Below, in pieces: positions 28,128 to 44,519 of a DNA stretch of 64,000 bases. Source of the stretch: an uncultured virus (IMG/VR IMGVR_UViG_3300025849_000011) (lineage: Duplodnaviria; Heunggongvirae; Uroviricota; Caudoviricetes); the IMG/VR virus record IMGVR_UViG_3300025849_000011; one strand, 5' to 3'. Every line of letters starts with the position of its first letter. Position 1 is the first letter of the stretch. The notes below the pieces were generated by a model that was not told where the DNA came from, ran no database searches, and worked only from the letters and a program-made list of their open reading frames with translations. A program made the position numbers and the translations under genes.

Positions 28128-28139
28128 TAATTATACAGA

Positions 28140-28543: not shown

Positions 28544-28546
28544 AAT

Positions 28547-28933
28547 TTAATTAACGCTTGGTGATACAGTGAGTGTCCCTTGAAGTATTCTTTCAATTAT
28601 TGTTGTGTTGGTAGCAGAATCTTGATAACTCAACTCAACATCATAAACATATCTTCCTGCTTTCATTGTATCTGTTATAGTATTTGCAAGAGATAGTTGT
28701 AAAACATTTGGATTATCAAGATCAAGAAATGAAGTTTCAAACGATATCGCAGAAGAGTCGCTTGTTGAATACGATTTCTTTATTTTTCCAGTTGCAGCAT
28801 ACGGTGTAATAGTTCCACCACTGTTTGCATCAAGTTTCTTAAATATTTTTTTACTACCATCAGTTTCAAAACATTCAAGTCTAAGTGTTATATCACTTCC
28901 TTGATCAACCATAATATCTTCAGATTGTGCCAT
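28547..28933 (-). CDS. Small virion structural protein typical of aquatic T4-like phages (128 aa)
   Basis: DQGSD...GRYVYDVEL...RILQGTLTVSP motif pattern. Confidence 0.7.
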   Translation of the reverse strand: MAQSEDIMVDQGSDITLRLECFETDGSKKIFKKLDANSGGTITPYAATGKIKKSYSTSDSSAISFETSFLDLDNPNVLQLSLANTITDTMKAGRYVYDVELSYQDSATNTTIIERILQGTLTVSPSVN

Positions 28934-28951
28934 TTTTTTTCTCCAGTATTT

Positions 28952-31445: not shown

Positions 31446-31456
31446 CGTTTATCTTT

Positions 31457-32686: not shown

Positions 32687-32717
32687 ATGCTCATCTTTGC
32701 TATAGGTTGCTTATGTT

Positions 32718-32725
32718 TATTTATA
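32718..32725 (-). promoter_or_regulatory. T4-type late promoter (TATAAATA) at the downstream edge of the radical SAM cassette
   Basis: Exact consensus overlapping the stop codon of the last cassette gene, ~30 nt upstream of ATG 32686. Confidence 0.75.
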
Positions 32726-33131
32726 AGGTTTCTAAGGCTAGTTTAAACTCATCCTCATAATATTTTCTAACATCTGGAACCATTCCTTTCATTTTTAAAG
32801 GAAATTCTATATTTTTCAATATTTGATCATAAGTATCAATATCTAAATGATATTGAATAAAATGTGGATCGTTTTCCGCTAGTAGATATTTATCATTTAA
32901 TAATTCAAAGAAATTTTCATCAAAATCTTGAGATAACCAATATGCATAACATATAGCAACAAAATATGATTTTGCTGGTCTAATAGTTTCATCAACATAT
33001 TCATTAAAGTGTAGTAAAGCATCCCTTACAATATTTTCTTCACTCCATGTCACATCCATTTTATTCAAATCATCTGAATACTCTCTATTAAGTAAGTGAT
33101 AAACTTGGGACGCTGTTCTCCATTTTCTCAT
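32721..33131 (-). CDS. Hypothetical protein, last gene of the cassette (likely start MRKWRT at 33131)
   Basis: ORF track 32721-33167; the internal ATG shortens the overlap with the upstream gene. Confidence 0.65.
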   Translation of the reverse strand: MRKWRTASQVYHLLNREYSDDLNKMDVTWSEENIVRDALLHFNEYVDETIRPAKSYFVAICYAYWLSQDFDENFFELLNDKYLLAENDPHFIQYHLDIDTYDQILKNIEFPLKMKGMVPDVRKYYEDEFKLALETL

Positions 33132-34017
33132 ACCAATCCAATAGCCCTTTATATCCGTTACATCCATTATCTAAATCCTTGACATATCGGTAATGTTCTG
33201 TTAAACAATTACCGAAATATTTGCATGAAGCGCAAATCGGACTTATCATTTCTTCTTTTTCTTTTTCTGCCCAATCCAAGTAAGATTGAAAAGAATCCAA
33301 CTCTTTAAAGTATTCCCTATCGTGAACATCAAACTCCAATACTCCAAACTTGCCGTTAGGAGTAATGTAAACATGATCATCCGAAAATGCATTGTATAAT
33401 CCACTAAAAGACTCCTCTATCTTGTTTGCATTTACAAATTGAAAATCCATTTGATTTTCTAATTCCATCCACTGAATAACAAACTTTTCAAAATCTAAAT
33501 GCGTCACAGTAAATGCATTTGCTTGATTAATAGAATATGGTTTAATCTCTACTGATTTAACAGCACCACACATATTCAATAATTTTATCATTTCATTTAC
33601 ATTCATCTTTAAAACTTGCGGTGATGCAAGAATAAGAACAGCAATCGGTACTGGACTCATCATCATATTCTGAAATACCAAATTTGATTTCTCTCTTGCT
33701 TCAAAATCGTAAGATACTGATAGATAAACATCGTCATCAAAGAAACCATCATGCATCATAGAATAGTTTGTGTTGATATTTATTTTTTTACCATAATACT
33801 TTTTAATTGTATTTTTAACATCATAAAAATAATTTTTCTTCATAGCACCAATTTCACCACCATATAGATCAACATGCTCTATATCTGGAATTTGTGAAAG
33901 TAATTCATCAAGTCTCTCAATTGAAATTTTTTTCTGATCGCCTAATTGTTCTGAAGTAAGATAACAAAAATCACAGCGAAAATTACAAAAATAAGATGGA
34001 TTTACAGATACAATCAT
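33088..34017 (-). CDS. Radical SAM protein with C-terminal Cys cluster (309 aa)
   Basis: CNFRCDFC (CxxxCxxC), YGGE, C-terminal CASCKYFGNC...C. Confidence 0.9.
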   Translation of the reverse strand: MIVSVNPSYFCNFRCDFCYLTSEQLGDQKKISIERLDELLSQIPDIEHVDLYGGEIGAMKKNYFYDVKNTIKKYYGKKININTNYSMMHDGFFDDDVYLSVSYDFEAREKSNLVFQNMMMSPVPIAVLILASPQVLKMNVNEMIKLLNMCGAVKSVEIKPYSINQANAFTVTHLDFEKFVIQWMELENQMDFQFVNANKIEESFSGLYNAFSDDHVYITPNGKFGVLEFDVHDREYFKELDSFQSYLDWAEKEKEEMISPICASCKYFGNCLTEHYRYVKDLDNGCNGYKGLLDWYEKMENSVPSLSLT

Positions 34018-35048
34018 GCATATTCTCTTACATATTCAGTAACTTTAGTATCCATTCTATTTAAAGAGATTATATCTTTAGCCATAGATTTCATATGTTG
34101 ACAGTGATCTTCAACCATGTTATGTTGTTTCAAATCTTTAATTGTTTTACGGCATCCATTACAAATTTCAAACATAGGACAGGTAAAACACGAATTTTTA
34201 AGACTCATTAAACTCAAATCATTACTGAGAGGTGTCTCAAAACCCCCATTCATTTCATATTCAAAATCTATTGGTTTGTCAAAATCATCACCGAAAGAAC
34301 CACAAGAATAGTAATCACCTTCTGGTTGAATATTACGAATGCCACTATCACAGTTTCTGGACTGAGGACATATGGTTGGTTTTTTTCTTAACCTATTTAA
34401 CATTTGTTGAGTATTATGTTCCCAATCACTAAGTCCTGCTTTCCAAATTTGAATATATCTCTCATAAATTTTTGATAATCTATATGGTGCTGACTGAGAA
34501 CCAGATGCCATAGCATAATTTACCTTACAAACAACATTCATCTTCTTAGCAAGTTGTACAGTCTGTATTACAGTATCTTCATTTTCATCCACAATTACCG
34601 CAATAAATGATGGTCTATAGCCTACATGCTCAAGCATCGCATCAGAACATTTCCAAAAATCTTCTTCTGTAAATTCACTGTAATCTCCCTTGAGCCTACC
34701 ACCGCCATATTGAAATGAAGTCCCAACACCAATTCTATGATGATTAAAGAGTTCTGCCCATTTTTTTGGTTTCATTAAAAAAGGATACAAATTGGTTGTA
34801 AGGGATATTGTCGCTGGCATATCATGTTTATCTAAAAACTCTATTAATTTCCAATAGTAGTTTGGCCTCATCATTAAAGGATCACCACCATTTACGATGA
34901 TAGTTTGCGTTTCAGGAAATCTTTTAAGAAATTTGAATATCTTATTCAAATCAAGTACAGCAGTGTTATCCTCTTGAGTAATTTTAGAGGAAGAACAAAA
35001 TGAACATTTAAAATTGCATAATTCTGTTGGTTTGATAATTAAGTCCAT
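34014..35048 (-). CDS. Radical SAM/SPASM protein (344 aa)
   Basis: IIKPTELCNFKCSFC, NGGDPL, CPQSRNC...YSCG...CFTCPMFEICNGC...C. Confidence 0.92.
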   Translation of the reverse strand: MDLIIKPTELCNFKCSFCSSSKITQEDNTAVLDLNKIFKFLKRFPETQTIIVNGGDPLMMRPNYYWKLIEFLDKHDMPATISLTTNLYPFLMKPKKWAELFNHHRIGVGTSFQYGGGRLKGDYSEFTEEDFWKCSDAMLEHVGYRPSFIAVIVDENEDTVIQTVQLAKKMNVVCKVNYAMASGSQSAPYRLSKIYERYIQIWKAGLSDWEHNTQQMLNRLRKKPTICPQSRNCDSGIRNIQPEGDYYSCGSFGDDFDKPIDFEYEMNGGFETPLSNDLSLMSLKNSCFTCPMFEICNGCRKTIKDLKQHNMVEDHCQHMKSMAKDIISLNRMDTKVTEYVREYA

Positions 35049-35623
35049 GGAGAATTCTTTATATTAAAACCAAAATTCATTGTGATTCTTTGCACATTGG
35101 GTTTTCTAAAATCCTCAACTCTATGTTGAAAATTTAAATCTTGACTACCTAATATTAAATCATATTTTTTTGGTAAGTGATAACAAGTGACACGTTTATT
35201 TTGTCTCATATTTCGGAACATTATTTCACCACCGACTCCTTGTTCCATATCAGTGAAATATAGTAAAAAGAAAACATTTGCACCTTCTCTTAAATCATTA
35301 TGCCAAGAACTAGAACCATCACATGCTCCATTCCAAATATATGAATATATTAATTTTTTGCTCTCATAACAATCGTCATACTTTGATAAGTATGTATCAT
35401 ACAATAAATCAGCAGTTTTCTTTATTTTGTTTCGCATACCATTCAAATGATAATTCCAACAAATGCTATAACTTTTACAATCATCACCATCATTTAACCA
35501 TTTTATTTTTGGAATATTATCACTACTCATATTTAACCACTTTAGTTTTGGCATAGTATCATTGATATGAATAAACATATTTTTATTATTTTCCATAAGA
35601 TATCCTTGGTCTTTCATTTCCAT
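35039..35623 (-). CDS. 2OG-Fe(II) oxygenase, paralog B
   Basis: WHND...GGEI...HRVE...RIT (HxD...H triad plus 2OG-binding Arg); alternative start at 35617. Confidence 0.8.
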   Translation of the reverse strand: MEMKDQGYLMENNKNMFIHINDTMPKLKWLNMSSDNIPKIKWLNDGDDCKSYSICWNYHLNGMRNKIKKTADLLYDTYLSKYDDCYESKKLIYSYIWNGACDGSSSWHNDLREGANVFFLLYFTDMEQGVGGEIMFRNMRQNKRVTCYHLPKKYDLILGSQDLNFQHRVEDFRKPNVQRITMNFGFNIKNSPWT

Positions 35624-36168
35624 GGAGATTCCTTTACTTTAAATCTAAAAAGCATTGTTATTCTTTCTTGCTTCAATTCTCTTGTATGCTCAACTCTATG
35701 CTGAAACTTTAAATCATCACCTACACTTCCCATTACTATATCATATTTTTTAGGTAGATGAAAAGCAGTTATTCTTTTATTTTGTTTCATATTTCTGTAC
35801 ATTATCTCACCACCATTATTCGGTTCTGAGTCTGTAAAATACAAATTAAATTGTAAGTTGCCACCTTCAGTATCATGATGCCACTCACACGAACCAGTGT
35901 CCGTCCCATTCCACATAGTATAATAATCCAAGTGTTTTTCGGTTTCCCACGGCAAGTAGGTTTCCCAAAGTAAATCGGCAGTTTTTAGCATCTTACTTTT
36001 CATGGAGTGGAAATAATAATTCCACGCGACGCTTTGCCATCTGTCAGATTTATCAGAATTACTTCTCTTTAAGTATAACCATTTTAATTTTGGTAATGTA
36101 TCTTTTATATGAATAAACATATCAGGATTATTTTCAATAAAACATCCAGAATTTTTATCAATATTCAT
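35614..36168 (-). CDS. 2OG-Fe(II) oxygenase, paralog A (likely start MNIDKNSG)
   Basis: WHHD...GGEI...HRVE...RIT; ATG 36168 lies just after the upstream stop. Confidence 0.8.
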   Translation of the reverse strand: MNIDKNSGCFIENNPDMFIHIKDTLPKLKWLYLKRSNSDKSDRWQSVAWNYYFHSMKSKMLKTADLLWETYLPWETEKHLDYYTMWNGTDTGSCEWHHDTEGGNLQFNLYFTDSEPNNGGEIMYRNMKQNKRITAFHLPKKYDIVMGSVGDDLKFQHRVEHTRELKQERITMLFRFKVKESPWK

Positions 36169-36169
36169 T

Positions 36170-36700
36170 TTATTCCCAGCCCACACTTACAGTCATTCTT
36201 GGTTTAGAGCCAAAATAAGGTCTAATACAATGTACCATAGAACTATTAAAAACTACTAACCTACCCACTTTTGGTTGTATTCTAGTCTTATTTTTTGGAT
36301 ATTGAAAAATATCAAGAGAATCATAAATATCCAACTCACCACCTTGCCAACCATTATTATCTATATCTATAAAAAATAATGTAATGATTTTAGACTCTGT
36401 TCCATCATGATGTGGTTCCCAAATCATATTTTCATTATTATCTTTTTCATACTTGACAATTTTTATCAAATGTGATATAGCAATTTTTTTTACATTTGAA
36501 TCTTTCACCATCGCAATAGTTTTTGCTTTATTCAGATTTGGAAAGTCATCCATATTATCTTTAATATTTATCGCCATATTTTTTTGCATGTTAAATCTTG
36601 GCAAATCCTCAATAGAGGGATTGGCAAAAGAAAACTTGCTTTGTATTCTTTCAAGTTCTTTTTTATTCAAAAAATCATCATAAATTTCTACAGAATTCAT
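36170..36700 (-). CDS. 2OG-Fe(II) oxygenase, prolyl-4-hydroxylase-like (176 aa)
   Basis: PHHD...WQGGEL...PKVGRLVVF...HCIRP...RMTV. Confidence 0.85.
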   Translation of the reverse strand: MNSVEIYDDFLNKKELERIQSKFSFANPSIEDLPRFNMQKNMAINIKDNMDDFPNLNKAKTIAMVKDSNVKKIAISHLIKIVKYEKDNNENMIWEPHHDGTESKIITLFFIDIDNNGWQGGELDIYDSLDIFQYPKNKTRIQPKVGRLVVFNSSMVHCIRPYFGSKPRMTVSVGWE

Positions 36701-38345
36701 CTAATCTTTCCTTTATCATTTCTTCATTTTTATTTAATAATATTTTCATTTCATTGACAATATCTTTACCTTTAAAGCGTCCCACATCAAACTTATCTAT
36801 GCTATGTGGATTTTTATCATAAAATATATTTCTTATTAATTCTTTGTAAACAAAAAACATAGGAATATCATTCAATATATTCCACAATTCTTTTGCTACC
36901 TCGGAAACATTTTCATATGTAGTATATTCACTTATAAAACTTAAACCTATATGTGGTGTAAACAAATTCATTATAAACATTTCTAGATATTCTTCAAACG
37001 TATATGAAAAACACTCAATTATAGTATCATATTCATATGCAACATCCCCATATATTGGATTTACTTCAACATCATCCCATTTTCCGCTATAGTTACCATC
37101 AAATTGTGTTAATACTTTTGAAGTTTTTATTTTATACTTTTCTTGATATTCTTTACTGGCAGTTTCAGTCGCTGGTAAAACCATGTAAGGATATCTAGTG
37201 TCTGCCCATACGTCAAGACCTTTCCATTCTTCCCAATCTTTTCCTTCATTATACCCAACTCTATAGTATACTTTAAATTCCTCGTAAAAATCTTTTAGTG
37301 TAGATCCCGGCATCGCTAAAATTAATTCTAAGTCTAACCATAATTCTTTTTCTTTAAAATTATTCCATTTATTAGTTAAATGATCCACCAACTCATAAGT
37401 TTCCTCAACATTAAGGTCTCTCCTGTTCGCAATTTTTCTCGCTTCTGGTGATATTGATTGTAAACTGATACTGATAACTTGACGAGTAATATCATGCTCA
37501 ATCATAAAATCAAGCATTTCTTTTTTCTGTTCCAATTTTAAAGTTTTTAATACCGATAGATTTTCACCAATTTGAACCCCATTATCCACCATGTGCATCA
37601 TCATTTCTCTATCACGTTCTTTAAACATTCCTGTATTAGCATCACACAAATCAATATGTACACCTTTGAACCGCCCTATAAATTCCATTTCATCCTTTAT
37701 CACAGCCATAGGTTTTTTTAGAACTTTTGTTCCAGTACCGCCACCCCACTCACAATAAGAACACTTAAATGGGCATCCTCTAGTACTTTCATATATCAAT
37801 GTTATTCGCTCATATAAGTCTATATTTTTAATGAAATGCTTATATTCTTTGGTAAAATAATCTTCACATCTCTTATATACATTCGTATGTCCAAATGGAA
37901 GAGGAATTTTTAAAGAACTACCCAAATAAAATGGAATCTTTTTCTTATCAACAGAATCCTCTAAATACATATCAAGAAAGTATTGAACGAATATTTCTCC
38001 TGGAGCAAGAGGGTCTGCAACATAGTCATAATCTTTTATTATATCAGGGTCTTGTTGAGGACCACCCATAACTACTATGGTATCTGAGTCAAGGCCATTT
38101 CGTATCCTTTGGTTAATTTTATAATTCCAAACATAATTGGTAAAAAATACAATAGAACACCCTTTAACATTATCCAAACAATCTTGTATTGTAACTTCAT
38201 TCCATTTGAATATTGGCTCCACCCAAGTAACTTTTTCTGGATATTTACCGTAATCTTCATAAAAACATTTAAAAAGCATCCAATGATAATTAAATTCGGC
38301 CCTTGAAGGTATTCCTGTTGGATTTATATAACCTACTTTAATCAC
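36678..38345 (-). CDS. Cobalamin-binding-type (class B-like) radical SAM protein (555 aa)
   Basis: N-terminal FTNYVWN...VVMGGPQ (B12-binding-like), ESTRGCPFKCSYCEWG, DANTG, SLQS, ELILAMPG. Confidence 0.8.
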   Translation of the reverse strand: MIKVGYINPTGIPSRAEFNYHWMLFKCFYEDYGKYPEKVTWVEPIFKWNEVTIQDCLDNVKGCSIVFFTNYVWNYKINQRIRNGLDSDTIVVMGGPQQDPDIIKDYDYVADPLAPGEIFVQYFLDMYLEDSVDKKKIPFYLGSSLKIPLPFGHTNVYKRCEDYFTKEYKHFIKNIDLYERITLIYESTRGCPFKCSYCEWGGGTGTKVLKKPMAVIKDEMEFIGRFKGVHIDLCDANTGMFKERDREMMMHMVDNGVQIGENLSVLKTLKLEQKKEMLDFMIEHDITRQVISISLQSISPEARKIANRRDLNVEETYELVDHLTNKWNNFKEKELWLDLELILAMPGSTLKDFYEEFKVYYRVGYNEGKDWEEWKGLDVWADTRYPYMVLPATETASKEYQEKYKIKTSKVLTQFDGNYSGKWDDVEVNPIYGDVAYEYDTIIECFSYTFEEYLEMFIMNLFTPHIGLSFISEYTTYENVSEVAKELWNILNDIPMFFVYKELIRNIFYDKNPHSIDKFDVGRFKGKDIVNEMKILLNKNEEMIKERLDEFCRNL

Positions 38346-38976
38346 CTTTATAGAACTCCATATTCATAAATTGTATCTTTGTGAACCCTTTTAAAACCTT
38401 AGACGTATATGGAGTTTCCATTATAGCACTGTCTGGATGGGTAGACATTTTTTTCATTTGAGTGTATAGTGTTTTGGCTGTAGGAACGTAAATAGGTCTA
38501 TTCTCAATTTCAGTTTTGCAAAATTTCACCATGATTTTATAAAAGTCTATTTCTTGCCTTCTGGTTAAGCAATCTCTATAAATTCCATTTATTTGAATAT
38601 TTGACATTATTGTATAATTTTTAGTTTTCTCTGTACCAATCCACCCTAACTCATAATCATTATTCACTGCTGTTTTGGGTGACCCAGTAAATTGAGTAGT
38701 GTAATCTTCTATCATAGATTTACTATTAACTTCAGATAATAAATTACTTGATAATGGAACACTAAAAACGTACACTTCACTACTCAAAAAATTATCTAAA
38801 AAATGAATACATGGGGGTAATTCTATATCAACTGAATAATCAAATACTGTACGGCACACATTATAGTCTATATCAATTTCTTTTATTGGAGTAATTAATC
38901 TTTTCGCTCTTGTTGGAAACCTATTTATAAAAGATTGACTTATTGGAGATTTATCACCATTTCCATAAAAAAACAT
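38338..38976 (-). CDS. Hypothetical protein (212 aa)
   Basis: ORF tightly packed within the cassette; no recognisable motif. Confidence 0.65.
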   Translation of the reverse strand: MFFYGNGDKSPISQSFINRFPTRAKRLITPIKEIDIDYNVCRTVFDYSVDIELPPCIHFLDNFLSSEVYVFSVPLSSNLLSEVNSKSMIEDYTTQFTGSPKTAVNNDYELGWIGTEKTKNYTIMSNIQINGIYRDCLTRRQEIDFYKIMVKFCKTEIENRPIYVPTAKTLYTQMKKMSTHPDSAIMETPYTSKVLKGFTKIQFMNMEFYKGD

Positions 38977-38977
38977 C

Positions 38978-40018
38978 TCATCTTAATCCTTGATTTTCAA
39001 TATATCTATGTGTCATCTTATAAACACATTCATCAAAAATTTCCTCTGCATATTTGTAATCGTGTGCCATGAAACACCCAAGAGTACATCTATGGAAATA
39101 TTCACAAGTAGAGCAATTGTACTTCTCAAGAAATGCTTTCTCAATAGGCTTATTATTGGCCTTTTGTATATCAGTTTTATACATTGCTTTATCTCTTGGC
39201 TCTTGAACAAGATTTCCACACAAACACATAGTCCCATCCTCAAGAACTAATTTAGATGATCTGCATGAAACAACATTACGTTCATTTTCTATCCAAGAAC
39301 GAATAGGTTCAATCTTAGGATAATTATCTATAAAATGTGTAAAAATATCGTAATGTTCTTTATCTGTCGGCATACTTCTTTCTGCTTGACAATCGGGCAT
39401 GTAGTAATCAGCATAAACCTTAACACCTTTATGATATAGATCATGCATAAAATCTTTTGGATCAGTAAGCCAATATCTTATATTTGATTTAGTTAGAAGA
39501 ACACCTATACCTTCTAAATCATCCCAAAAATCATATACATTCTCTTTGAAAATTTCTAAGTTTGGTTTGTTAAATCTACCTCTAGGATCATATGAGGTTA
39601 CAAGTTTTGTAGCACATCCCATATCCCTACACGCTTTTAATATTTCTCTCACATAATCCTTTTTACTAATAACAAGATTAGTTACCCAATTAATACTCAC
39701 TTCATCAAAGTTATATTTTTTTCCTAAGTTTACTATTCCTTGAGCAAGAGAAATGTAGTCATTCTTCAATTTTTCATCAAAAATTTCATCGGCAAATATT
39801 TCGCCACCCATAATATTTAAAACAACACGTTTTCTCATTTCTTTCTCAAAGAATTTTTCTATTGATTCTAATTTATCTAAAACTGTATCAATACCCACAA
39901 TGTTGTCATGGTCTTGCCAGCAAAATGGGCAAGATAGATTACAAAACTCAAACAAATGAATTGTATATTCTTGCTGCTTATCTCTTTTATCTCTTAAAAT
40001 AAAATCTACTAAATCCAA
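38978..40018 (-). CDS. Radical SAM protein with SPASM/twitch-like C-terminus (346 aa, TTG start)
   Basis: CNLSCPFC, MGGE, C...CLCG...CSTCEYFHRCTLGC...C. Confidence 0.9.
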   Translation of the reverse strand: MDLVDFILRDKRDKQQEYTIHLFEFCNLSCPFCWQDHDNIVGIDTVLDKLESIEKFFEKEMRKRVVLNIMGGEIFADEIFDEKLKNDYISLAQGIVNLGKKYNFDEVSINWVTNLVISKKDYVREILKACRDMGCATKLVTSYDPRGRFNKPNLEIFKENVYDFWDDLEGIGVLLTKSNIRYWLTDPKDFMHDLYHKGVKVYADYYMPDCQAERSMPTDKEHYDIFTHFIDNYPKIEPIRSWIENERNVVSCRSSKLVLEDGTMCLCGNLVQEPRDKAMYKTDIQKANNKPIEKAFLEKYNCSTCEYFHRCTLGCFMAHDYKYAEEIFDECVYKMTHRYIENQGLR

Positions 40019-40672
40019 TCAAACTTCTCCTGCACCAACTCCCCAAGTTAATAGGAAAAGTGGATTTTTTTCATAGGACCAATAATCAAATAAACCCTTT
40101 CCATTAAACATATATTCATTAAAATATTTAGAATAATAGGTCAAGTTTTTTTCATCTAATCCATTGTAGTAATAATAAAAATCTTCATGTTTTAATAAAG
40201 ATACAAAATTAATACCTTTTATATCATCAGTATCATCTTCTTCATGTGATATTACCCAATCTTTCATCTCATCATCTTGGATAATATACATATTATAAAG
40301 TGTCAATGAATCTAACTTTTTAATCCAAGTATCAATGACTTCTTTGTTATCATCAATGAAATCTTGATAGCAACCTAAACATTCTAAAGATAGATTTTTT
40401 TTCACCAAAAGAACCTCAATAATAAATTCTTCTAAAACTTTAATATTTAATATTTGTGGAAACTGAAGATATATTTTTGCAAGGTTCTCTAAATCATTTC
40501 CTTCAACTTTAATATCACAAGGTAACTCTAAGTTGCTTAAATAAACGAGTAATTTCTCACCTTGTAACTCACTATTTTCATAATCAATAATAAAATTAAT
40601 ACTATCATCAGAAAAATATTTTTGTAAATCATCAATACCTAGTGGTGCAGTCACTGTAACATAATTATTCAT
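40019..40672 (-). CDS. Acidic hypothetical protein (217 aa), possible accessory factor
   Basis: ORF between the candidate substrate and a radical SAM gene; no catalytic motif recognised. Confidence 0.7.
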   Translation of the reverse strand: MNNYVTVTAPLGIDDLQKYFSDDSINFIIDYENSELQGEKLLVYLSNLELPCDIKVEGNDLENLAKIYLQFPQILNIKVLEEFIIEVLLVKKNLSLECLGCYQDFIDDNKEVIDTWIKKLDSLTLYNMYIIQDDEMKDWVISHEEDDTDDIKGINFVSLLKHEDFYYYYNGLDEKNLTYYSKYFNEYMFNGKGLFDYWSYEKNPLFLLTWGVGAGEV

Positions 40673-40679
40673 AATAAAA

Positions 40680-41507
40680 TTATCTCCTATTTCTTGATGA
40701 ATGGCAATTAGAGTGGCAATTAGAATGGCATACAGATTCAGTATATCCTGCTATATTTCCATCTATAGCAACAGTTTTCCATGCCTCATATAGATTATTG
40801 AATAATGTTTCCATATCACCATCATCAATTAAATCTCCAGCGACTATCATTGAATGATCAACATCAGAAGAATCAATGGTGAAACTATGTCTAGGAGTTA
40901 AAACGCCCACTCCACTAACACTTATTGCTTTACCTATAACAGCACCACTTCGTAAACTAACTGCATATTTTTGTGTCGCTGATGTACAAGCCGATTGAGC
41001 GTCTGAACGTAAGGTCTCTGCTTCTTGTTTTGTGGAAGGTTTTCCACCAATACCATATGAATTCCAATTTGTAAAAAACTCTGAGATAAATCCACCAAAA
41101 GTAACACCAGCCCCAGCAGATACTTCGTTGTCTAAAGCATCTCTCCATTCACAAGCAAAGTTTTTTTCCTTTTCTGCATTTTCGGTAGATGCCGTATTGC
41201 GTGACGGTATTGGTATATTTCCACCTGGAATACCAGTTACAGTTCTTGTGGCAGTAAATTTTCTAACTCTAGTATATTGGTTAATATCCTTTAATAGAAC
41301 AGCAAAAATATTTGATGCTGTTATTGGCCCATCCAACAAATCAGGATTTGTTGTCACACCAGTTGTATTTCCATGAAAATAACTTGCTACTGATGCAAAT
41401 GGTAGATTATCATCACCAAACACAATAGCATCATTAATTTTATCAGTCACAAACTGTCTGTATTTTGTAATTACAGGGTTTTCTGTAATAGGGTCTGATA
41501 TTGCCAT
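40680..41507 (-). CDS. Candidate substrate/precursor protein with C-terminal CHSNCHSNCHSSRNRR (275 aa)
   Basis: Strong AGGAG SD; Thr/Gly/Ser/Ala-rich body like virion proteins; Cys-His repeat tail encoded by a 12-nt repeat. Confidence 0.75.
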   Translation of the reverse strand: MAISDPITENPVITKYRQFVTDKINDAIVFGDDNLPFASVASYFHGNTTGVTTNPDLLDGPITASNIFAVLLKDINQYTRVRKFTATRTVTGIPGGNIPIPSRNTASTENAEKEKNFACEWRDALDNEVSAGAGVTFGGFISEFFTNWNSYGIGGKPSTKQEAETLRSDAQSACTSATQKYAVSLRSGAVIGKAISVSGVGVLTPRHSFTIDSSDVDHSMIVAGDLIDDGDMETLFNNLYEAWKTVAIDGNIAGYTESVCHSNCHSNCHSSRNRR

Positions 41508-41517
41508 TCTTTATCTC

Positions 41518-42537
41518 CTAGACATTCTTTGCCAATTCCATCATTAAACTTTTAGGTGCGCCACACACATCACCTTCCCATCCTAATTGGTGACAATCAC
41601 CACCACAATATTTTGCAACAGGACAAGAAAGGCAATTGGGGTTTCTCATTTTTTCTTCAATAATAGTTCGTATTCTTCTAGGACTATTTATAAGAGTTTT
41701 AATAGAATCATCCAAAGTTCCGAATTGAAATTCTGGTGCTGAATTCGGACAACCACTTATTGTACCATCTCCATTTATTGTAAATAATTTTGTTTCACAA
41801 TCTCTACAAAAAGTGCCACACGTAGTAAGAGTTTTCTCAAACTTAGCATATACATTTTCAAGAAAGTCATTTTCAAACCAATCTCGCGCACCATATTTTT
41901 CACTTTGTTGATGCATTTTCAAAAAATAAGCATCTAATTCTTTATTAGATGGAAATATCTCTGATGCTTCTCTAGCATTACCATTATTAGTTAATCTCTC
42001 TAAGGATACTTCTTGAACCCCTAATCTTCTACACCATCTCAATAATACAATAGGGTCTTTTTCTAAAGTATCTTTAGTAAGACTAATAAACAAACGTATA
42101 GTTACACCATCTGCTAAAAGAGACTTGACGTTTTTATGCCATAAGTTATATTGTCTTTGATTATCAAATCTTATCTTACGGTCCCATGAAGTTCCTAACC
42201 TATTCCTAAGTGGGCCTTTTATAAATTCTCTATGCTGATCTTTTAATTTATATACTAAATTGGTTGTGGCTCCCCAACTCATATTATCCCAAAGACCATC
42301 ACAAGCATCATACACTTTTCTCATTTGCCCTACAGGTACAAGAAATGGTTCGCCACCATGAAACTCTAAATGAATACCATCATCCTTCGCAGGTTTTTCT
42401 TCACGAAATCTATGTATCCAATCAACTATCTTATCAGTATTCCAATAAATTTTAGCACCGTTGCTACCAGAGGTAAAACAGTGCTTACAGTTTAATTGAC
42501 AAGTTTCTGTGGTTTTAAGATATACTGACCAAAACAC
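41518..42537 (-). CDS. Radical SAM/SPASM protein (339 aa, GTG start)
   Basis: YLKTTETCQLNCKHC, FHGGEP, CGTFCRDC...GCP...CLSCPVAKYCGGDC...C. Confidence 0.92.
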   Translation of the reverse strand: MFWSVYLKTTETCQLNCKHCFTSGSNGAKIYWNTDKIVDWIHRFREEKPAKDDGIHLEFHGGEPFLVPVGQMRKVYDACDGLWDNMSWGATTNLVYKLKDQHREFIKGPLRNRLGTSWDRKIRFDNQRQYNLWHKNVKSLLADGVTIRLFISLTKDTLEKDPIVLLRWCRRLGVQEVSLERLTNNGNAREASEIFPSNKELDAYFLKMHQQSEKYGARDWFENDFLENVYAKFEKTLTTCGTFCRDCETKLFTINGDGTISGCPNSAPEFQFGTLDDSIKTLINSPRRIRTIIEEKMRNPNCLSCPVAKYCGGDCHQLGWEGDVCGAPKSLMMELAKNV

Positions 42538-43033
42538 TATTCATTTTATCCTCTATAAATTTTTCTAAGCCAAAACTCAAAGTAAGTGCTTCATGTTCAT
42601 TAAATGCTTGGTGAGGGGTATTCGCAGGAATATGTAGTGTTGCACCTTCCTTCAAAGTAAATACTGGTTCACCACCCATAGTATGACCTTCCATTGCTAT
42701 CGTTTTCATTCCTTCACAACAATATATAACGACATTATCTGGATCAGTATGTTTTTTGAATGAATGAGCATTTTTTTCAGCATAAAATAAATGACATGTT
42801 ATTGGGCCATTATGATCATACATATCTTCTAGTTCTAAACAATAAGAAAAAATCTCCGAGTTATATGCTTCCATTCTTTCAATTTTTATTGAATTTGTAT
42901 TTTTATTTGCAAGAGTATCCGCAAAATTTTTCATTAGATGTTCTCTGCCATTTTCATCTATTGCATAAACCATATTTTGTTCATACGCAAGATCACTCGC
43001 AATTATTTTTAAGAATTGACTCTTAGTAAGCAT
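42515..43033 (-). CDS. JmjC/cupin-type Fe(II)/2OG hydroxylase (172 aa)
   Basis: SFKKHTD...VIYCCEGMK...LHIPANTPHQA...LSFG (HxD...H), Cupin_4/YcfD-like pattern. Confidence 0.8.
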   Translation of the reverse strand: MLTKSQFLKIIASDLAYEQNMVYAIDENGREHLMKNFADTLANKNTNSIKIERMEAYNSEIFSYCLELEDMYDHNGPITCHLFYAEKNAHSFKKHTDPDNVVIYCCEGMKTIAMEGHTMGGEPVFTLKEGATLHIPANTPHQAFNEHEALTLSFGLEKFIEDKMNSVLVSIS

Positions 43034-43059
43034 AACAAAATCCTTTAATGACTAAGACT

Positions 43060-43088
43060 ATTATAAACTACATAGCCTAAAATGTCAA
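43060..43088 (-). promoter_or_regulatory. Perfect sigma70 consensus promoter upstream of the radical SAM cassette
   Basis: TTGACA (43088-43083), 17-bp spacer, TATAAT (43065-43060), then AGGA SD and ATG 43033. Confidence 0.9.
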
Positions 43089-43096
43089 TATGTAAT

Positions 43097-44299
43097 TTAG
43101 AGTTTAAGGACACACTCAATCATTTTTTCACCCTCAAAATCATTACTTTCAAGAGCGAGACCTACTAATTCTGCACCATTAAACTCTGAACTAGCAACAC
43201 CATCACGCCAAGTATATACTGCCTCACCTTTTCTAATTTGACCATTTACTCTTACGGGAACCCTACCTTTAAGTGCAAGTGCTTGTCCTTCTGCTTCTGC
43301 ATTCATAAGAAATGCTGGCTCTGCTGAAACGACTCCAATTGGAATACCAGAAGTGGTACATCTTGTAGTTTCACCAGTTGGCCCAAAATTTACCATCATA
43401 ACAGTGCCTATTGGATAATCTTCATCTGTGGTATATTTTTCCGCAAGGTCAGCAAAATTAGCAGATGTAGCATTACCATGAAAAGTTGTTGCGTACATAT
43501 TTGCGTATTTAAACGATGAACTACCCACACTGTAAGAGTTATCTGTGTCTGGAACAATATGCCCACCGTGATTTATTTGACCATTAAATGTTGATGTAAC
43601 AGAAAGAGCGGAAGTCCCAACAGTAACCGTATTGTAAAAAGTACTAGTTCCATTATATACTCTTGTACCAGTGTATGATGTGGAAACATTATTTCTTACA
43701 AGAGATGGGTCCATTGCTTCTAATGGTATTGTAGTACCATCAGTCACTATTTTACTAGCAGGAATATCAGGTATTCTTCCTATTAGAAAAGTTCCCCTAT
43801 TAATTTTACTAGTATGTAAAGATGGAATACGATCACTATCAAATTGCCCAGCAGTGGTTTGATTTGCAGATAGATATGGTAATCTAGCAGTTGCTAATGT
43901 TCCAGTTGTTATAACCCCAGCATCTATTGCTGGTATTAATGATGGATTAATAGTTCCAGTTGTTAATTTTCCAGCATCTAAATTAGGAATATCGTTTGCC
44001 GTGAGTGGATTACATGTGAATGTAAATACCCCACCACCAATACCTGCTGAATCTGTATAAGATAAACTTGAATATGTACCAGACCCACCAGTTGATAATG
44101 CTAATGCAGTTCTTGCTAATCCTTGCACTTCACCATTAACAGCAAATTTACTTTCAATTGAATTTACTGCACCGACAATACTTCCACTATCAGTTGTATT
44201 TAAATCATCTAAATCACCTATATAAGTTGCAGTAAGGTTTGTTTTCATTCTCCAAGCATTTACTGAATTACTGAGATCAACATTTTCTAATCTAGCCAT
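43097..44299 (-). CDS. Tail fibre protein with C-terminal peptidase G2/IMC-like autocleavage domain (likely start MARLENV)
   Basis: IPxLDAxKxTTG repeats; ADLAEKY...GTV...IGVVS.EPAFLMN...ALKGRVPV motif. Confidence 0.75.
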   Translation of the reverse strand: MARLENVDLSNSVNAWRMKTNLTATYIGDLDDLNTTDSGSIVGAVNSIESKFAVNGEVQGLARTALALSTGGSGTYSSLSYTDSAGIGGGVFTFTCNPLTANDIPNLDAGKLTTGTINPSLIPAIDAGVITTGTLATARLPYLSANQTTAGQFDSDRIPSLHTSKINRGTFLIGRIPDIPASKIVTDGTTIPLEAMDPSLVRNNVSTSYTGTRVYNGTSTFYNTVTVGTSALSVTSTFNGQINHGGHIVPDTDNSYSVGSSSFKYANMYATTFHGNATSANFADLAEKYTTDEDYPIGTVMMVNFGPTGETTRCTTSGIPIGVVSAEPAFLMNAEAEGQALALKGRVPVRVNGQIRKGEAVYTWRDGVASSEFNGAELVGLALESNDFEGEKMIECVLKL

Positions 44300-44519
44300 T
44301 AGTGTCACCTAACTTTCTGGAAATTTCTACAAGCAGATTTTTCATATCCGCTACTTCTGATTTTAATACTTGAAATTCTTCTTTTTCTTCTCGCATTTTT
44401 TTCTTTCTTGCCTTCGCTTTTTCAATTTCTACAAGATCACTATTAATTATAGCACCAGATTCTAAATCTTTGACATAATTTTTTTCACCTTGAATTTTAG
44501 AAAATAACATATTAATCAC
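44292..44519 (-). CDS. Small coiled-coil hypothetical protein (75 aa)
   Basis: KDLESGAIIN...LKSEVADMKNLL; overlaps both neighbours in operon style. Confidence 0.7.
   Translation of the reverse strand: MINMLFSKIQGEKNYVKDLESGAIINSDLVEIEKAKARKKKMREEKEEFQVLKSEVADMKNLLVEISRKLGDTNG

Follow-up and report, generated by a model that had tools for sequence, protein, structure and literature searches.

The ranthipeptide freyrasin is made from PapA by PapB, a single SPASM enzyme of about 330 aa that turns every one of the tandem CX3D repeats into a small thioether ring. The precursors of mycofactocin and PQQ have an invariant C-terminal core beside a SPASM enzyme, and in the long-tail-fiber tip of phage T4, His residues hold iron. 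A whole protein is matured in the anti-phage system HXS, which consists of HxsA (an effector with His-Xaa-Ser repeats), the radical-SAM enzymes HxsB and HxsC, and the small HxsD; according to the available part of the report, HxsB and HxsC mature HxsA, and a +8 Da change was mapped to SHRSS (PMC13128918). In Methanococcus voltae, CrpA acquires thioethers at C-x-x-Q/D-type motifs through the action of CrpC, as described in the accessible sections of that study (PMC13692751). QhpD-type thioether cross-links lie in QhpC, the small subunit of quinohemoprotein amine dehydrogenase (in part from PMC13692751).

Here, we analyzed a 64,000-nt stretch of DNA (the window) from a marine, T4-like phage. On its minus strand (32721-43033), 13 co-oriented ORFs (g1-g13), each abutting or overlapping its neighbor with spacings of -80 to +10 nt, encode five CX3CX2C radical-SAM proteins (one class-B-like, the others having SPASM-like Cys motifs), one JmjC-like cupin, three 2OG-oxygenase-like proteins, three unknowns, and the 275-aa protein g3, as a sequence-only reading of the same DNA had described. 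The last 16 residues of g3 (the tail) comprise three Cys-His repeats and an Arg-rich end and are near-constant among homologues. We consider it probable (roughly 0.6) that the substrate of the radical-SAM enzymes is this invariant tail of a variable virion protein.

Judging from sequence comparison, the nearest known systems appear to be HxsA/HxsBC, CrpA/CrpC, and QhpC/QhpD, although the cassette misses every curated-family threshold tested for them. As far as the available text on HXS goes, both systems have several radical-SAM enzymes, a small accessory protein, and a whole-protein (here candidate) substrate with short tandem repeats and a basic modifiable region (the HxsA site is S-H-R-S-S); the repeat His is invariant, followed by Ser in HxsA, and many tails here read C-H-x-S and thus contain H-x-S (PMC13128918). 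Unlike in HXS, each His here follows an invariant Cys, the three repeats lie at the extreme C-terminus followed by RxRR, at least four radical-SAM enzymes and a cupin are present, neither a signal peptide nor a peptidoglycan-binding domain could be detected, and the owner is a phage or predatory bacterium rather than the defending host. With 33.6 bits for g2 against the HxsB model (cut-off 370) and 31.7 bits for g11 against that of HxsC (cut-off 267.9), the two are not members of these families.

Like CrpA/CrpC, the cassette would combine a SPASM enzyme with RiPP-like (ranthionine) thioethers on a large Cys-rich protein that has C-x-x-acceptor motifs in its C-terminal part; a further link is that the top NCBIfam match of g2, TIGR04083 (50 vs a 300-bit cut-off), is a peptide-modifying radical-SAM family of methanogens, the available part of the CrpC paper naming no family (PMC13692751). 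In CrpA, however, the repeats number ten, each of 17 residues, and an RRE in CrpC recognizes a conserved N-terminal leader (PMC13692751), whereas here we find a 16-residue tail, several enzymes, co-invariant His, and no detectable RRE. As in QhpC/QhpD, a SPASM enzyme would put several Cys cross-links into a subunit retained in a larger assembly, but in QhpC the acceptors are Asp and Glu, a single enzyme acts, and the context is a periplasmic enzyme (in part from PMC13692751). Against the QhpD model TIGR03906, g2 scored 21.6 bits (cut-off 453).

With PapA/PapB, the cassette shares tandem short Cys repeats and an enzyme that aligns end to end (residues 4-317 of g2 to positions 4-318 of 330), but g2 scored 42.7 vs the 340-bit cut-off, the acceptor Asp is absent, and a protein takes the place of the secreted peptide as candidate substrate. 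Because the radical-SAM family matches lie this far under the curated cut-offs, the chemistry is unreadable from homology. The tail also recalls the His-boxes of the T4 tip, which are repeated His motifs in the host-recognition protein of a T4-like phage; the T4 metal sites, however, need no enzymes and have no Cys, and no sequence or fold similarity was found between g3 and this tip.

Cassette organization

The cassette is flanked by tail-fiber and baseplate genes (Table 1), in agreement with its earlier placement within a tail-fiber locus, and this location in the baseplate/fiber module is the same in the window phage and in isolate phages. The upstream 403-aa tail-fiber-like protein is syntenic in relatives, and the downstream 407-aa protein carries an S74 intramolecular chaperone domain (Peptidase_S74, E 8e-14). 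The promoter-like site upstream of g1 is the only 12/12 match within 32000-45000; because the total of promoter-like sites in this interval was no higher than in shuffles, its putative function is suggested by position only. Pfam, NCBIfam, and PHROGs searches detected no protease or exporter family among the 13 products, as had been noted before.

Table 1. Features of the cassette and its flanks in the window
Feature	Position	Strand	Evidence
g1, 172 aa, JmjC-like cupin (HxD...H), semi-core	42515..43033	-	Cupin_2 28.2 vs 27.2, JmjC_2 27.3 vs 22 bits
g2, 339 aa, radical-SAM/SPASM, core, directly upstream of tail protein	41518..42537	-	CX3CX2C at 13, CX2CX5CX3C at 302
g3, 275 aa, variable alpha/beta protein, candidate substrate	40680..41507	-	ends CHSNCHSNCHSSRNRR
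Tail codons, CHSNCHSNCHSSRNRR = residues 260-275 of g3	40683..40730	-	sequence
g4, 217 aa, acidic, always adjoins tail protein, core	40019..40672	-	phrog_20767, unknown function, E 7e-53
g5, 346 aa, radical-SAM/SPASM-like, TTG start, core	38978..40018	-	CX3CX2C at 26, CX2CX5CX3C at 302
g6, 212 aa, accessory	38338..38976	-	no Pfam/NCBIfam/PHROGs family found
g7, 555 aa, class-B-like (B12-type) radical-SAM, accessory	36678..38345	-	Radical_SAM 36.4 bits
g8, 176 aa, 2OG-Fe(II) oxygenase, accessory	36170..36700	-	2OG-FeII_Oxy_3 32.3 vs 27 bits
g9, 190 aa, 2OG-oxygenase-like, accessory	35614..36186	-	2OG-FeII_Oxy_3 20.8 bits, below cut-off; HxD at 103
g10, 194 aa, g9 paralogue, accessory	35039..35623	-	51% identical to g9 over 193 residues, E 5e-62
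g11, 344 aa, radical-SAM/SPASM-like, core	34014..35048	-	Radical_SAM 41.1 bits
g12, 309 aa, radical-SAM, short C-terminal Cys set, core	33088..34017	-	Radical_SAM 33.2 bits
g13, 148 aa, core, overlaps g12 by 80 nt	32721..33167	-	phrog_20737, unknown function, E 2e-31
Promoter-like site, sigma-70-type, TTGACA-17-TATAAT, 12/12	43060..43088	-	in 63-nt gap upstream of g1
Tail-fiber-like protein, 403 aa, upstream context	43097..44308	-	phrog_22593 + phrog_19602 'tail fiber protein', C-terminal 140 aa
Two fiber-like proteins, 409 aa + 407 aa, downstream context	30222..32686	-	tail-fiber PHROGs

Enzymes and accessory proteins

The CX3CX2C motif is present in g2, g5, g7, g11, and g12. The four CxxxCxxC proteins with Cys-rich C-termini recognized earlier correspond to g2 and g5 (CX2CX5CX3C), g11 (CX2CX5CX2C), and g12, which has its CX3CX2C at residue 11 and a shorter C-terminal set (Cys 262, 265, 271, and 286); SPASM-type auxiliary-cluster motifs occur in three of these four core enzymes. 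The SPASM model TIGR04085 was passed by g2 (35.1 vs cut-off 27 bits), which also gave full-length, sub-threshold matches to TIGR04083, PapB, DynA, and anSME. Both g2 (E 2e-61) and g5 (E 2e-41) matched phrog_1802, g5 scoring 23.8 bits against Radical_SAM, under the 29.5 cut-off. The best-conserved cassette member, g11 (53-59% identity to isolate phages), matched the DynA model along its full length (E 2e-15, sub-threshold). Cyclophane-forming families were likewise matched at full length and sub-threshold by the cassette radical-SAM proteins, and the viperin and MoaA models at the N-terminus only. The enzymes thus resemble peptide/protein maturases, these full-length matches being sub-threshold and the SPASM match of g2 above its cut-off.

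The B12-type enzyme of the sequence-only reading, g7, is class-B-like, with the KedN5-family B12 radical-SAM model as its best match (E 1e-23, 83 vs 700 bits, radical-SAM core only) and TIGR04013 (B12-domain/rSAM) at E 2e-5, but Pfam reported no B12-binding domain in it. Its homologues occur in 22 of the 122 tail-pattern viral loci described below. The cupin assignment of g1 held, as both Cupin_2 and JmjC_2 were passed; g1 is similar to phrog_8014 and has homologues in 54/122 tail-pattern viral loci, in most loci found with g2 or BLAST, and in some Bdellovibrionota loci. An HxD motif with later His residues is present in all of g1, g8 (HxD at residue 97, His157), g9, and g10. Three 2OG-Fe(II) oxygenases had been proposed, of which g8 exceeded the Pfam cut-off and g10 is a paralogue of g9, but g9 itself fell below the cut-off and g10 had no Pfam match.

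No Pfam or NCBIfam family was found for g4, g6, or g13, nor any Pfam family in 65 members of the g4 family. Of the 122 tail-pattern loci, for many of which the flank is limited to about 300 nt, 81 contain a g4 homologue; the AF2 model of g4 (pLDDT 95.2) had no PDB match (best Z 4.4). Homologues of g6 were found in close relatives (L003-L005, L007, L027, and L028) and in four of the 122 loci (L053, L103, L104, and L106), and those of g13 sit at the cassette end in phage and Bdellovibrionota loci.

The tail protein and its conservation

The Cys/His end reported earlier for the 275-aa protein is present in g3. Among 68 g3 homologues, the only invariant columns were C260, H261, C264, H265, C268, H269, R272, R274, and R275; the rows of this alignment were largely pattern-selected, and the 29 rows found via g2 agree. 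The body of the protein ranges from 124 to 402 aa, and residues 101-190 of g3 are hypervariable. Between the window and locus L003, the neighboring enzymes are 95-99% identical, whereas g3 is 51% identical overall and 28% over residues 101-190. Going by such identities, the g3 body evolves much faster than the adjoining enzymes. The AF2 model of g3 (pLDDT 85.3 overall, about 54 in the tail) contains a short helix at residues 267-273 and had no fold match in the PDB. Cys/His at i, i+1 with i+4 spacing also suits a metal site.

The ORF right after the g2 homologue ended with CHxxCHxxCHxxRxRR in all 29 judgeable loci (the g2/BLAST search gave 32 loci, three of which end too early to judge). The tail DNA pattern alone (51 nt, estimated chance about 1e-13 per position) occurred in at least 123 stretches of the viral collection, which excludes chance, and in 39 family-like loci of prokaryote assemblies, 27 of them labelled Bdellovibrionota. 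A g11 homologue was present in 10 of 301 sampled Bdellovibrionota genomes; eight of these have the exact tail pattern and two have variant Cys/His ...SRxRR tails adjoining g4 or g2. Homologous clusters thus keep a Cys/His-tailed partner, canonical or variant, as the earlier interpretation implied (29/29 and 10/10). In tail-pattern viral loci of at least 9 kb (n = 63), a CX3CX2C ORF was present in 63/63 and two or more in 62, whereas none was present in four 12-kb control segments taken from the rest of the window.

The Bdellovibrionota cassettes are chromosomal, among housekeeping genes, so that the system, although phage-encoded as proposed, is not phage-specific. The linkage between enzymes and tail persists through gene-order shuffling, strand changes, and transfer across unrelated phage lineages and a bacterial phylum. 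The cassette is a conserved system with a core of the cupin, four radical-SAM enzymes (g2, g5, g11, and g12), tail protein, g4, and g13. The earlier view of the enzymes as one cassette applies to this core, which travels with the tail, but not to the B12-type g7, g6, and the 2OG genes g8-g10, which are accessory. Tail composition did not clearly follow the presence of accessory oxygenases; five loci combine an Asn-rich tail with three 2OG genes, and these are close relatives of one another. In RSL2-type cassettes, a dihydrofolate reductase sits between radical-SAM genes. RSL2 ORF068 and RSF1 ORF071 carry no annotation beyond hypothetical protein, while a neighboring gene is labelled a virion structural protein. 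We found no paper describing this system.

Virion association in phage Atu_ph07

Gp170 of Atu_ph07 (31.89 kDa), taken as the tail protein by position and size, was detected in purified virions by mass spectrometry (8 unique peptides, 35% coverage), in line with the proposed virion component. The enzymes gp164, 165, 168, and 171, the g4 homologue gp169, and the cupin gp172 are absent from the virion list. Because the preparation included some non-structural proteins (RNR, topoisomerase, RecA-like), the virion association of Gp170 is good but not proof. Gp170 occurred in gel slices 1-9 and, although only 32 kDa in size, mostly in the top one (slice 1), the slice with the maximum for proteins of 88-139 kDa. 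The sample buffer, as written, was without reductant, so oligomers held by disulfides or stable in SDS, and not enzymatic cross-links, could account for this migration. Since Bdellovibrionota have no virion, a role as virion protein cannot be general.

Proposed maturation and alternative explanations

What follows on tail modification, its sites and chemistry, and the function in the particle is inferred. The cassette would be a maturation system dedicated to a single protein, g3, a folded, fast-diversifying, virion-associated protein of the baseplate/tail-fiber module, with the flexible C-terminal tail [VIL]-C-H-x-x-C-H-x-x-C-H-x-x-R-x-R-R-COOH as substrate. The enzymes g2, g5, g11, and g12 would take H atoms from tail residues, leading to covalent cross-links, preferably small ranthionine-type thioether rings within the motif, each joining a Cys to position +3 (mostly Ser/Asn), and possibly His-centered C-C or C-N links, as implied for HxsA S-H-R-S-S. 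The JmjC-like cupin g1 may hydroxylate tail His, Arg, or Asn, and in the window's clade g7 and g8-g10 may introduce methyl or hydroxyl groups. The proteins g4 and g13 could be accessory factors, possibly substrate chaperones, and the modified g3 would then be incorporated into the particle. The earlier comparison with a RiPP-type system needs correction: strictly, this is no RiPP, as the putative substrate is a folded protein of 124-402 aa that seems to stay intact. Overall, the earlier interpretation of the cassette is partly supported.

It is unlikely, in our estimate, that the tail is a metal- or Fe-S-binding motif without covalent modification, with three Cys-His pairs on one helix face, possibly along an oligomer axis, and with radical-SAM enzymes that act elsewhere or need the tail as cluster donor or scaffold. 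In its favor, the invariant residues, spaced i/i+4, are classic metal ligands, a short helix is modelled there, and SDS-stable high-mass migration is typical of fiber oligomers; in the available text, the CrpA authors also consider metal binding for their modified Cys-rich protein (PMC13692751). However, the model confidence of this region is low, and such a motif leaves unexplained why at least four maturase-type radical-SAM/SPASM enzymes always accompany the tail, with no other conserved candidate substrate. Modification and metal binding may also coexist. Quite unlikely is a tail that forms the core of a released modified peptide or cofactor, the variable body being a discarded leader or carrier. 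Its position next to a SPASM enzyme matches the mycofactocin/PQQ precursor layout, a Bdellovibrionota g11 homologue weakly matches mycofactocin maturase (E 8e-6), and the system also occurs in cells without a virion; yet no protease, peptidase, or exporter family is found among the 13 products or conserved neighbors, the g3 body is confidently folded in the AF2 model, and the Atu_ph07 protein was recovered from virions. Moreover, known leaders are the conserved part of their precursors, unlike this recombining hypervariable body.

Very improbable, finally, are DNA, nucleotides, sugars, or a cofactor as targets (e.g., in phage DNA hypermodification or on a surface glycan), with the tail protein merely a linked structural gene. 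Nucleotide/DNA modification by phage radical-SAM and 2OG enzymes is known, g8 is weakly similar to phrog_274 (labelled DNA endonuclease V), and the dihydrofolate reductase of RSL2-type cassettes and the viperin and MoaA matches would fit such targets, but the viperin and MoaA matches do not extend beyond the generic radical-SAM core at the N-terminus. C-termini of the SPASM type are characteristic of peptide/protein maturases, and the persistent linkage would be difficult to account for unless the enzymes and the tail were functionally connected. For the preferred reading, in which the tail of g3 is the substrate, the cassette set shared with other giant phages and predatory bacteria suggests an undescribed chemical modification of a particle protein.

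Gene content of the cassette

Thirteen open reading frames, all on the minus strand and spaced from -80 to +10 nt from their neighbours, occupy 32721-43033, and every gene element that the sequence-only reading had claimed for this segment, from the radical-SAM and oxygenase genes to the Cys/His-tailed protein, was found there again. Numbering from g1 to g13 follows the order of transcription.

Positions of the cassette genes, promoter-like and late-type motifs, and neighbouring giant ORFs in the window
Feature	Position	Strand	Assignment
g1	42515-43033	-	cupin / JmjC_2
g2	41518-42537	-	radical SAM + SPASM domain
g3	40680-41507	-	275 aa, C-terminal end CHSNCHSNCHSSRNRR
g4	40019-40672	-	no assigned function
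g5	38978-40018	-	radical SAM
g6	38338-38976	-	no assigned function
g7	36678-38345	-	radical SAM, 555 aa
g8	36170-36700	-	2OG-oxygenase type
g9	35614-36186	-	2OG-oxygenase type
g10	35039-35623	-	2OG-oxygenase type
g11	34014-35048	-	radical SAM
g12	33088-34017	-	radical SAM
g13	32721-33167	-	no assigned function
TTGACA-17-TATAAT	43088-43060	-	sigma-70 consensus
TATAAATA	1448-1455	-	T4-type late motif
TATAAATA	28120-28127	-	T4-type late motif
TATAAATA	32718-32725	-	T4-type late motif, precedes the fibre gene that comes after the cassette
TATAAATA	54698-54705	-	T4-type late motif
TATAAATA	63222-63229	+	T4-type late motif
Giant ORF	10847-28087	-	5746 aa, downstream of fibre genes
Giant ORF	4238-10846	-	2202 aa, downstream of fibre genes
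Next ORF	1467-4238		923 aa

The radical-SAM signature CX3CX2C, sought near the N-terminus of the core, was present in all five proteins concerned (g2, g5, g7, g11, and g12). The gathering cut-off of PF04055 (29.5 bits) was exceeded by g7 (36.4 bits), g11 (41.1 bits), and g12 (33.2 bits). Scores of g5 (23.8 bits) and g2 (18.5 bits) fell below it, and these two proteins matched phrog_1802, "radical SAM domain-containing protein", at E 2e-41 and 2e-61, respectively. By motif and profile, the five proteins can be assigned to the radical SAM superfamily. The SPASM/twitch group was defined by a C-terminal CX2CX5CX3C with flanking Cys residues and at least 27 bits against TIGR04085. Both features were found in g2 (35.1 bits; motif at residue 302), and g5 (CX2CX5CX3C), g11 (CX2CX5CX2C), and g12 (a shorter, twitch-like four-Cys set) were placed there by the Cys motif alone.

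Known maturase systems were compared as possible identities of these enzymes. Equivalogs of the HXS system were missed, with alignments limited to the N-terminal part: g2 reached 33.6 bits against HxsB (TIGR03978, cut-off 370) and g11 reached 31.7 bits against HxsC (TIGR03977, cut-off 267.9). The substrates differ as well, because HxsA carries HxS repeats, whereas the repeat here is C-H-x-x, often C-H-x-S. The ranthipeptide maturase PapB (NF047865) was missed by g2 (42.7 bits versus 340), although the alignment was full-length, and anSME (TIGR03942, cut-off 349) was missed by both g2 (38.8 bits) and g11 (46.7 bits). Compared with the anSME target motif C/S-x-P/A-x-R, the last tail repeat C-H-x-S-R has the same Cys/Arg spacing but lacks the Pro/Ala, and no sulfatase was found among the 13 cassette products. 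In addition, g2 scored 50 bits against TIGR04083 (cut-off 300) and E 4.5e-11 against the DynA model, which g11 matched with 56.8 bits (cut-off 450); cyclophane-forming families matched g11 too. The alignments of g2 and g11 to these maturase models (TIGR04083, PapB, DynA, and anSME) were full-length, with scores far under the curated cut-offs, so the chemistry is not readable from homology. The enzymes represent new families within the SPASM group.

Class B radical-SAM enzymes combine an N-terminal B12-binding Rossmann domain with the radical-SAM core. The best family match of g7 was the B12-dependent methyltransferase KedN5 (NF033712; E 1e-23, 83 bits versus a cut-off of 700), covering only residues 184-356 of the core. 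TIGR04013 (B12-domain/rSAM) aligned with residues 90-208 (E 2e-5), and Pfam reported no B12-binding domain in g7 at E ≤0.01. The 180-aa N-terminal extension of g7 would fit a class B layout. For the 2OG-Fe(II) oxygenases, we used PF13640 (at least 27 bits) and the HxD...H iron triad. The profile was passed by g8 (32.3 bits), failed by g9 (20.8 bits), and not matched by g10; g9 and g10 are paralogues (51% identical), and HxD with a later His occurs in all three. The g1 product passed both PF08007 JmjC_2 (27.3 bits, cut-off 22, with a match of only 34 residues) and PF07883 Cupin_2 (28.2 bits, cut-off 27.2), and its H95-x-D97 is followed by further His residues downstream, as in the HxD...H pattern of JmjC/cupin proteins.

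The fold of g4 was predicted very confidently (pLDDT 95.2). Foldseek found no PDB counterpart, the best VIA match reached Z 4.4 over residues 1-57, the g4 profile had no sequence relative with a solved structure, and no Pfam family was found across 65 members. Searches of the ESM Atlas with g4 and g13 returned no usable match. The predicted g3+g4 complex scored 0.00, which is uninformative for or against binding.

The tail protein and its invariant C-terminus

Among 68 aligned homologues of the tail protein g3, the invariant columns were exactly C260, H261, C264, H265, C268, H269, R272, R274, and R275. Many of these rows were pattern-selected; the 29 rows found via g2 were not, and they have the same invariant residues. 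The fourth position of the tail repeat is Ser or Asn in most homologues, and a hydrophobic residue usually precedes the first Cys. A relaxed search pattern was used, as one that requires Ser at the second repeat misses the window's own tail. Four-repeat tails occur in a few homologous loci (L185, L193).

The bodies of the family span 124-402 aa and share a moderately conserved N-terminal helix. Between the window and the homologous locus L003, the enzymes are 95-99% identical and g4 96%, with g3 at 51% overall and 28% over residues 101-190. Among close relatives, the g3 body diverges far faster than the neighbouring genes. Tail proteins of 187 aa lack a segment matching residues 101-190. A confident AF2 model of g3 (pLDDT 85.3) shows an alpha/beta fold in which the variable segment forms a long helical hairpin and the tail is flexible (pLDDT ~54). 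The g3 profile found no relative among sequences of solved structures (best E 0.08), Foldseek gave no PDB match at E ≤0.001, and VIA-align recovered the helical hairpin only (residues 97-187, Z ≤7.4). In BFVD, only uncharacterised family members were matched, and a word-index homology search returned 12 proteins with no functional name, one labelled "hypothetical protein". Neither the tail protein nor g4 is covered by an NCBIfam model. The correlation of the accessory genes with tail composition was inseparable from common ancestry.

Distribution among phages and viral contigs

Searches of 50,697 phage records by tblastn with g2, g4, and g11 retrieved the identical 15 records each time. These include Atu_ph07 and Phosso, T4-like giants of Agrobacterium and Sinorhizobium, the phiKZ-related Ralstonia/Burkholderia phages RSL2, RSF1, FLC4/6/8, RsoM3USA, and SURPRISE13, and Pseudomonas phage pPa_SNUABM_DT01. 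Whole-cassette megablast and g3 tblastn against the isolate-phage collection, from which records of the window's own genome may be missing, gave no match. Both RSL2 and Atu_ph07 have the order cupin, g2-like, tail protein, g4-like, and g5-like, then g11-like and g12-like genes, and their tail proteins end in ...CHSSCHTSCHGSRGRR (RSL2, 186 aa) and ...CHSSCHASCHNSRSRR (Atu_ph07, 296 aa). The Campylobacter phages CP220 and CPt10, with their 11-12 radical-SAM genes (PMC2853527), were considered as members and excluded because they were missing among the g2 and g11 tblastn matches.

A scan of IMG/VR with g2 yielded 30 loci. The sequence-only reading had proposed co-occurrence with a Cys/His-tailed partner, and this held: in 29 of 32 loci (the 30 from IMG/VR and two from isolates), the ORF directly after the g2 homologue ends in CHxxCHxxCHxxRxRR, and the remaining three loci end before the tail gene could appear. 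The genes g1, g2, g3, g4, g5, g11, g12, and g13 recur across loci, and the presence of g6, g7, and the 2OG genes varies. When the back-translated tail alone was used, at least 123 IMG/VR stretches were found; the estimated chance of the pattern is ~1e-13 per position. Among the matches listed, 148 tail-ended ORFs lay in 122 of 123 loci, and all 63 loci of at least 9 kb contained CX3CX2C ORFs (two or more in 62). Four 12-kb pieces taken as controls from elsewhere in the window contained no such ORF.

In a second architecture, two tandem tail proteins of 124-140 aa lie directly behind a large fibre gene, followed by four to five divergent radical-SAM genes (CxxxCxGCF), a g4-like gene, and sometimes homologues of the cupin, g2, or g11. 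It was seen in the viral loci L058, L066, L076, L101, and L110, as well as in L173, L183, and L200; the fibre gene encodes up to 1850 aa, with collagen-like repeats in one case. Other genes also accompany the cassettes. Dihydrofolate reductase and a DHFR-like gene lie between radical-SAM genes in RSL2 (L001, 15042-16191), and also in the FLC phages and SURPRISE13. Many cassettes, though not that of the window, encode a family of ~350 aa, phrog_36207 (N-terminus M-x-N-L-F...), in the interval from the tail-protein gene to the radical-SAM genes (L001:10642-11709, L168:4239-5276, L176:8785-9879). In pPa_SNUABM_DT01 (L204, 10491-14987), at least six annotated radical-SAM genes in series adjoin a Mu gp45-like central spike gene.

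Cassettes in Bdellovibrionota

The tail-pattern scan of prokaryotes, with one genome per species, gave 47 stretches. Of these, 36 were ORFs of >100 aa with a terminal tail, three were truncated or short family-like ORFs, three were low-complexity CHCHCH runs, and five lay away from any ORF end. Stretches labelled Bdellovibrionota in their record titles (Bdellovibrio-, Bacteriovorax-, Halobacteriovorax-, and Pseudobdellovibrio-like) accounted for 27 of the 47, some on contigs of 1.3-2.8 Mb. Their loci contain g2, the tail protein, g4, g5, g11, g12, g13, and sometimes the cupin, in shuffled order and on both strands. The 20-kb flanks on each side, inspected in two genomes, carry housekeeping genes (for PNPase, dUTPase, a sigma-70 factor, SMC, Pth, PRPP synthetase, Lgt, and a PBP) together with CRISPR-Cas, and no phage structural genes were seen in them. 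The system is not confined to phages.

A g11 homologue (E ≤1e-40) was present in 10 of 301 (3%) sampled Bdellovibrionota genomes. Eight of the ten also match the tail pattern exactly; in seven of these, the match is on the same contig, no more than ~14 kb away. The other two have variant tails adjoining g4 or g2, both with the ...SRxRR end kept: ...CHSNHCSHSNHGSRGRR (L206:8562-9170, genome G151), with two Cys and four His, and the degenerate 104-aa form ...CNSNFICHSNCYTPPPKSRSRR (L205:15294-15608, genome G146). When one Bdellovibrionota cassette was scanned with NCBIfam, the tail protein matched no curated family, and neither did the homologue of g4, the radical-SAM protein resembling g5, or another CX3CX2C protein encoded in the same locus; the g2, g11, and g12 homologues had sub-threshold maturase matches only.

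In the one case of this kind examined, a Halobacteriovoraceae MAG locus (L176) encodes a 408-aa protein (169-1395, minus strand) ~2 kb from the cassette, with a C-terminal phage-fibre S74-chaperone-type domain (tail-fibre PHROGs, E down to 6e-23). Judged by eye, its N-terminus looks like a pilin-type hydrophobic segment, and the protein resembles the fibre gene product adjoining the window's cassette. Within 20 kb of another Bdellovibrionota cassette, that of genome G002, there are five FGE-sulfatase-domain paralogues, four of them in tandem (L207, G002:C2:2188047-2208046), and a type I-C-like CRISPR-Cas locus (L208) lies on the opposite side of it.

For 75 g11 homologues, a quick maximum-likelihood tree rooted at the midpoint only was built after matches of <300 aligned residues and exact duplicates were left out; RSL2 and pPa_SNUABM_DT01 are the only isolate-phage rows left after filtering. 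One clade (SH-aLRT 96) comprises 19 genome rows, of which 18 bear a Bdellovibrionota label and the last is a Flavobacteriaceae MAG. The adjoining clade of 49 rows (SH-aLRT 98) holds 40 of the 42 viral rows, the window, RSL2, pPa_SNUABM_DT01, and six MAG rows from other phyla, probably phage contigs drawn in by binning. One of its viral rows, L063, is the IMG/VR copy of Atu_ph07. T4-like and phiKZ-like phages are intermingled inside this clade. The topology fits an old bacterial/phage split with exchange among phage lineages, although a quick tree is no proof of direction.

Surroundings, expression, and virion evidence

The cassette is surrounded by a T4-type baseplate/fibre module with gp5-, gp6-, gp25-, gp48-, and gp53-like PHROGs, a DUF4815 protein, several fibre proteins, and an S74 chaperone domain. 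BLASTP revealed no similarity between the 403-aa fibre-like protein of the window and the 195-aa ORF beside the cassette of locus L199. The 2202-aa and 923-aa products had no PHROG match at E ≤1e-5.

A perfect 12/12 sigma-70 consensus lies inside the 63-nt gap before g1, and the T4-type late motif is located 26-33 nt ahead of several structural-gene start codons. The sigma-70 site hints that host RNA polymerase may transcribe the cassette in its unmodified form, in contrast to the adjoining late-type genes. As the counts of sigma-70-like sequences and of the late motif (15 versus 13.3 expected) are at chance level, it is the positions alone that are suggestive. Contigs from two marine metatranscriptome runs (X1 and X2) of one study span 30 of 30 bins of 28000-47000 and are near-identical to the window, with 0-9 differing letters per listed piece and about two-thirds of the pieces ≥99% alike. 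These contigs indicate presence in the libraries; transcription and the start points of transcripts cannot be read from them, and they may stem from DNA carry-over.

Table S5 of the Atu_ph07 study lists Gp 170 at 31.89 kDa, with 8 unique peptides and 35.16% coverage, in gel slices 1-9 with peak abundance in slice 1 (PMC6102473). Gp 170 is taken to be the tail protein because the numbering matches RefSeq (in the paper, as in RefSeq, CDS 180 is the 13,350-bp structural gene; PMC6102473) and 296 aa fits 31.9 kDa. The earlier suggestion that the tail protein is a virion component is supported for this homologue. The virion list includes neither the radical-SAM products gp171, 168, 165, and 164 nor the homologue of g4 (gp169) or the cupin (gp172) (PMC6102473). 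Judged from the masses of other proteins, slice 1 would be the top of the gel, since proteins of 88-139 kDa peak there and those of 8-12 kDa in slice 13 (PMC6102473). The sample was treated at 95 °C in SDS, in a buffer that, as written, contains no reductant (PMC6102473), so that the high apparent mass could reflect disulfides, SDS-stable oligomers, or enzymatic cross-links.

Proposed modification of the tail

The cassette ties four maturase-type radical-SAM enzymes and a cupin to a protein that is constant only in its 16-residue Cys/His/Arg tail. From this we infer, with a probability of about 0.6, that the tail is the substrate modified by the cassette's enzymes. A RiPP cluster in the strict sense has a short precursor with a conserved leader and a variable core, removal of the leader by a protease, a small exported product, and often an RRE. 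This identity was rejected: the precursor candidate is a folded protein of 124-402 aa whose conserved part is the presumed modified end while the remainder varies, and a family member, the Atu_ph07 homologue, was recovered from virions. In agreement with the initial observation that a protease and an exporter were missing, family searches detected neither among the 13 products, and no RRE family was detected there either.

JmjC_2-type cupins belong to a group with protein His and Arg hydroxylases among its members, so the invariant His or Arg residues of the tail would be likely targets of g1. In the window's clade, g7-g10 may add methyl or hydroxyl decorations. The nearest parallels come from two reports: CrpC introduces ranthionine thioethers into C-x-x-acceptor motifs of the protein CrpA (PMC13692751, 2026), and HxsB/HxsC with HxsD mature HxsA, where +8 Da was mapped to S-H-R-S-S in the His-x-Ser repeats (PMC13128918, 2026). 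Because the tail repeat C-H-x-[S/N] unites the CrpA and HxsA motifs, thioether rings closed within the motif, from Cys to position +3, and/or cross-links centred on His would be the preferred, still doubtful, products by analogy.

A wider and quite improbable reading is that of an attack-apparatus maturation system common to jumbo phages (at least three lineages) and predatory Bdellovibrionota. The radical-SAM set would turn the (Cys-His-x-x)3-Arg-x-Arg-Arg end into a rigid, cross-linked, cationic tip, perhaps metal-binding, on a hypervariable surface or baseplate protein. At the victim's envelope, this tip might serve adhesion, penetration, or DNA escort. The system would then be the offensive counterpart of the HXS defence effector, whose His-x-Ser repeats, modified by radical-SAM enzymes, block phage DNA entry, and its product the first enzymatically cross-linked structural protein known from a virus particle.

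Novelty and implications

Radical-SAM/SPASM maturation of protein substrates is already known; most cases of radical-SAM/SPASM chemistry concern small secreted peptides, and a few concern cellular proteins. The new aspects here are the substrate family and the invariance of its tail, a core of several enzymes, the virion context, and the occurrence of one system in both giant phages and predatory bacteria. Literature searches returned no description of this system. In their accessible parts, the genome papers of FLC6 (PMC8066314), SURPRISE13 (PMC11898562), and RP12/RP31 (PMC5468394) merely list the genes, and the available text of phage genome papers offered no explanation for the radical-SAM genes of these phages; a text search of a jumbo-phage comparative review (PMC7824862) found rSAM, SPASM, and JmjC unmentioned.

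The system would provide a concrete, testable hypothesis on why radical-SAM genes, so far unexplained, occur in the RSL2/RSF1, FLC, and SURPRISE13 genomes. For enzymology, the invariant tail of 16 residues offers a ready substrate, with four distinct enzymes outside all curated families tested. If our reading is right, this would be the first radical-SAM/SPASM maturation system directed at a virion protein, and a widespread one (at least 123 viral stretches, 15 isolate phage records, and 10 of 301 Bdellovibrionota genomes). It would connect phage particles and bacterial predators through a common, ancient gene set and may represent an offensive counterpart to HXS defence.
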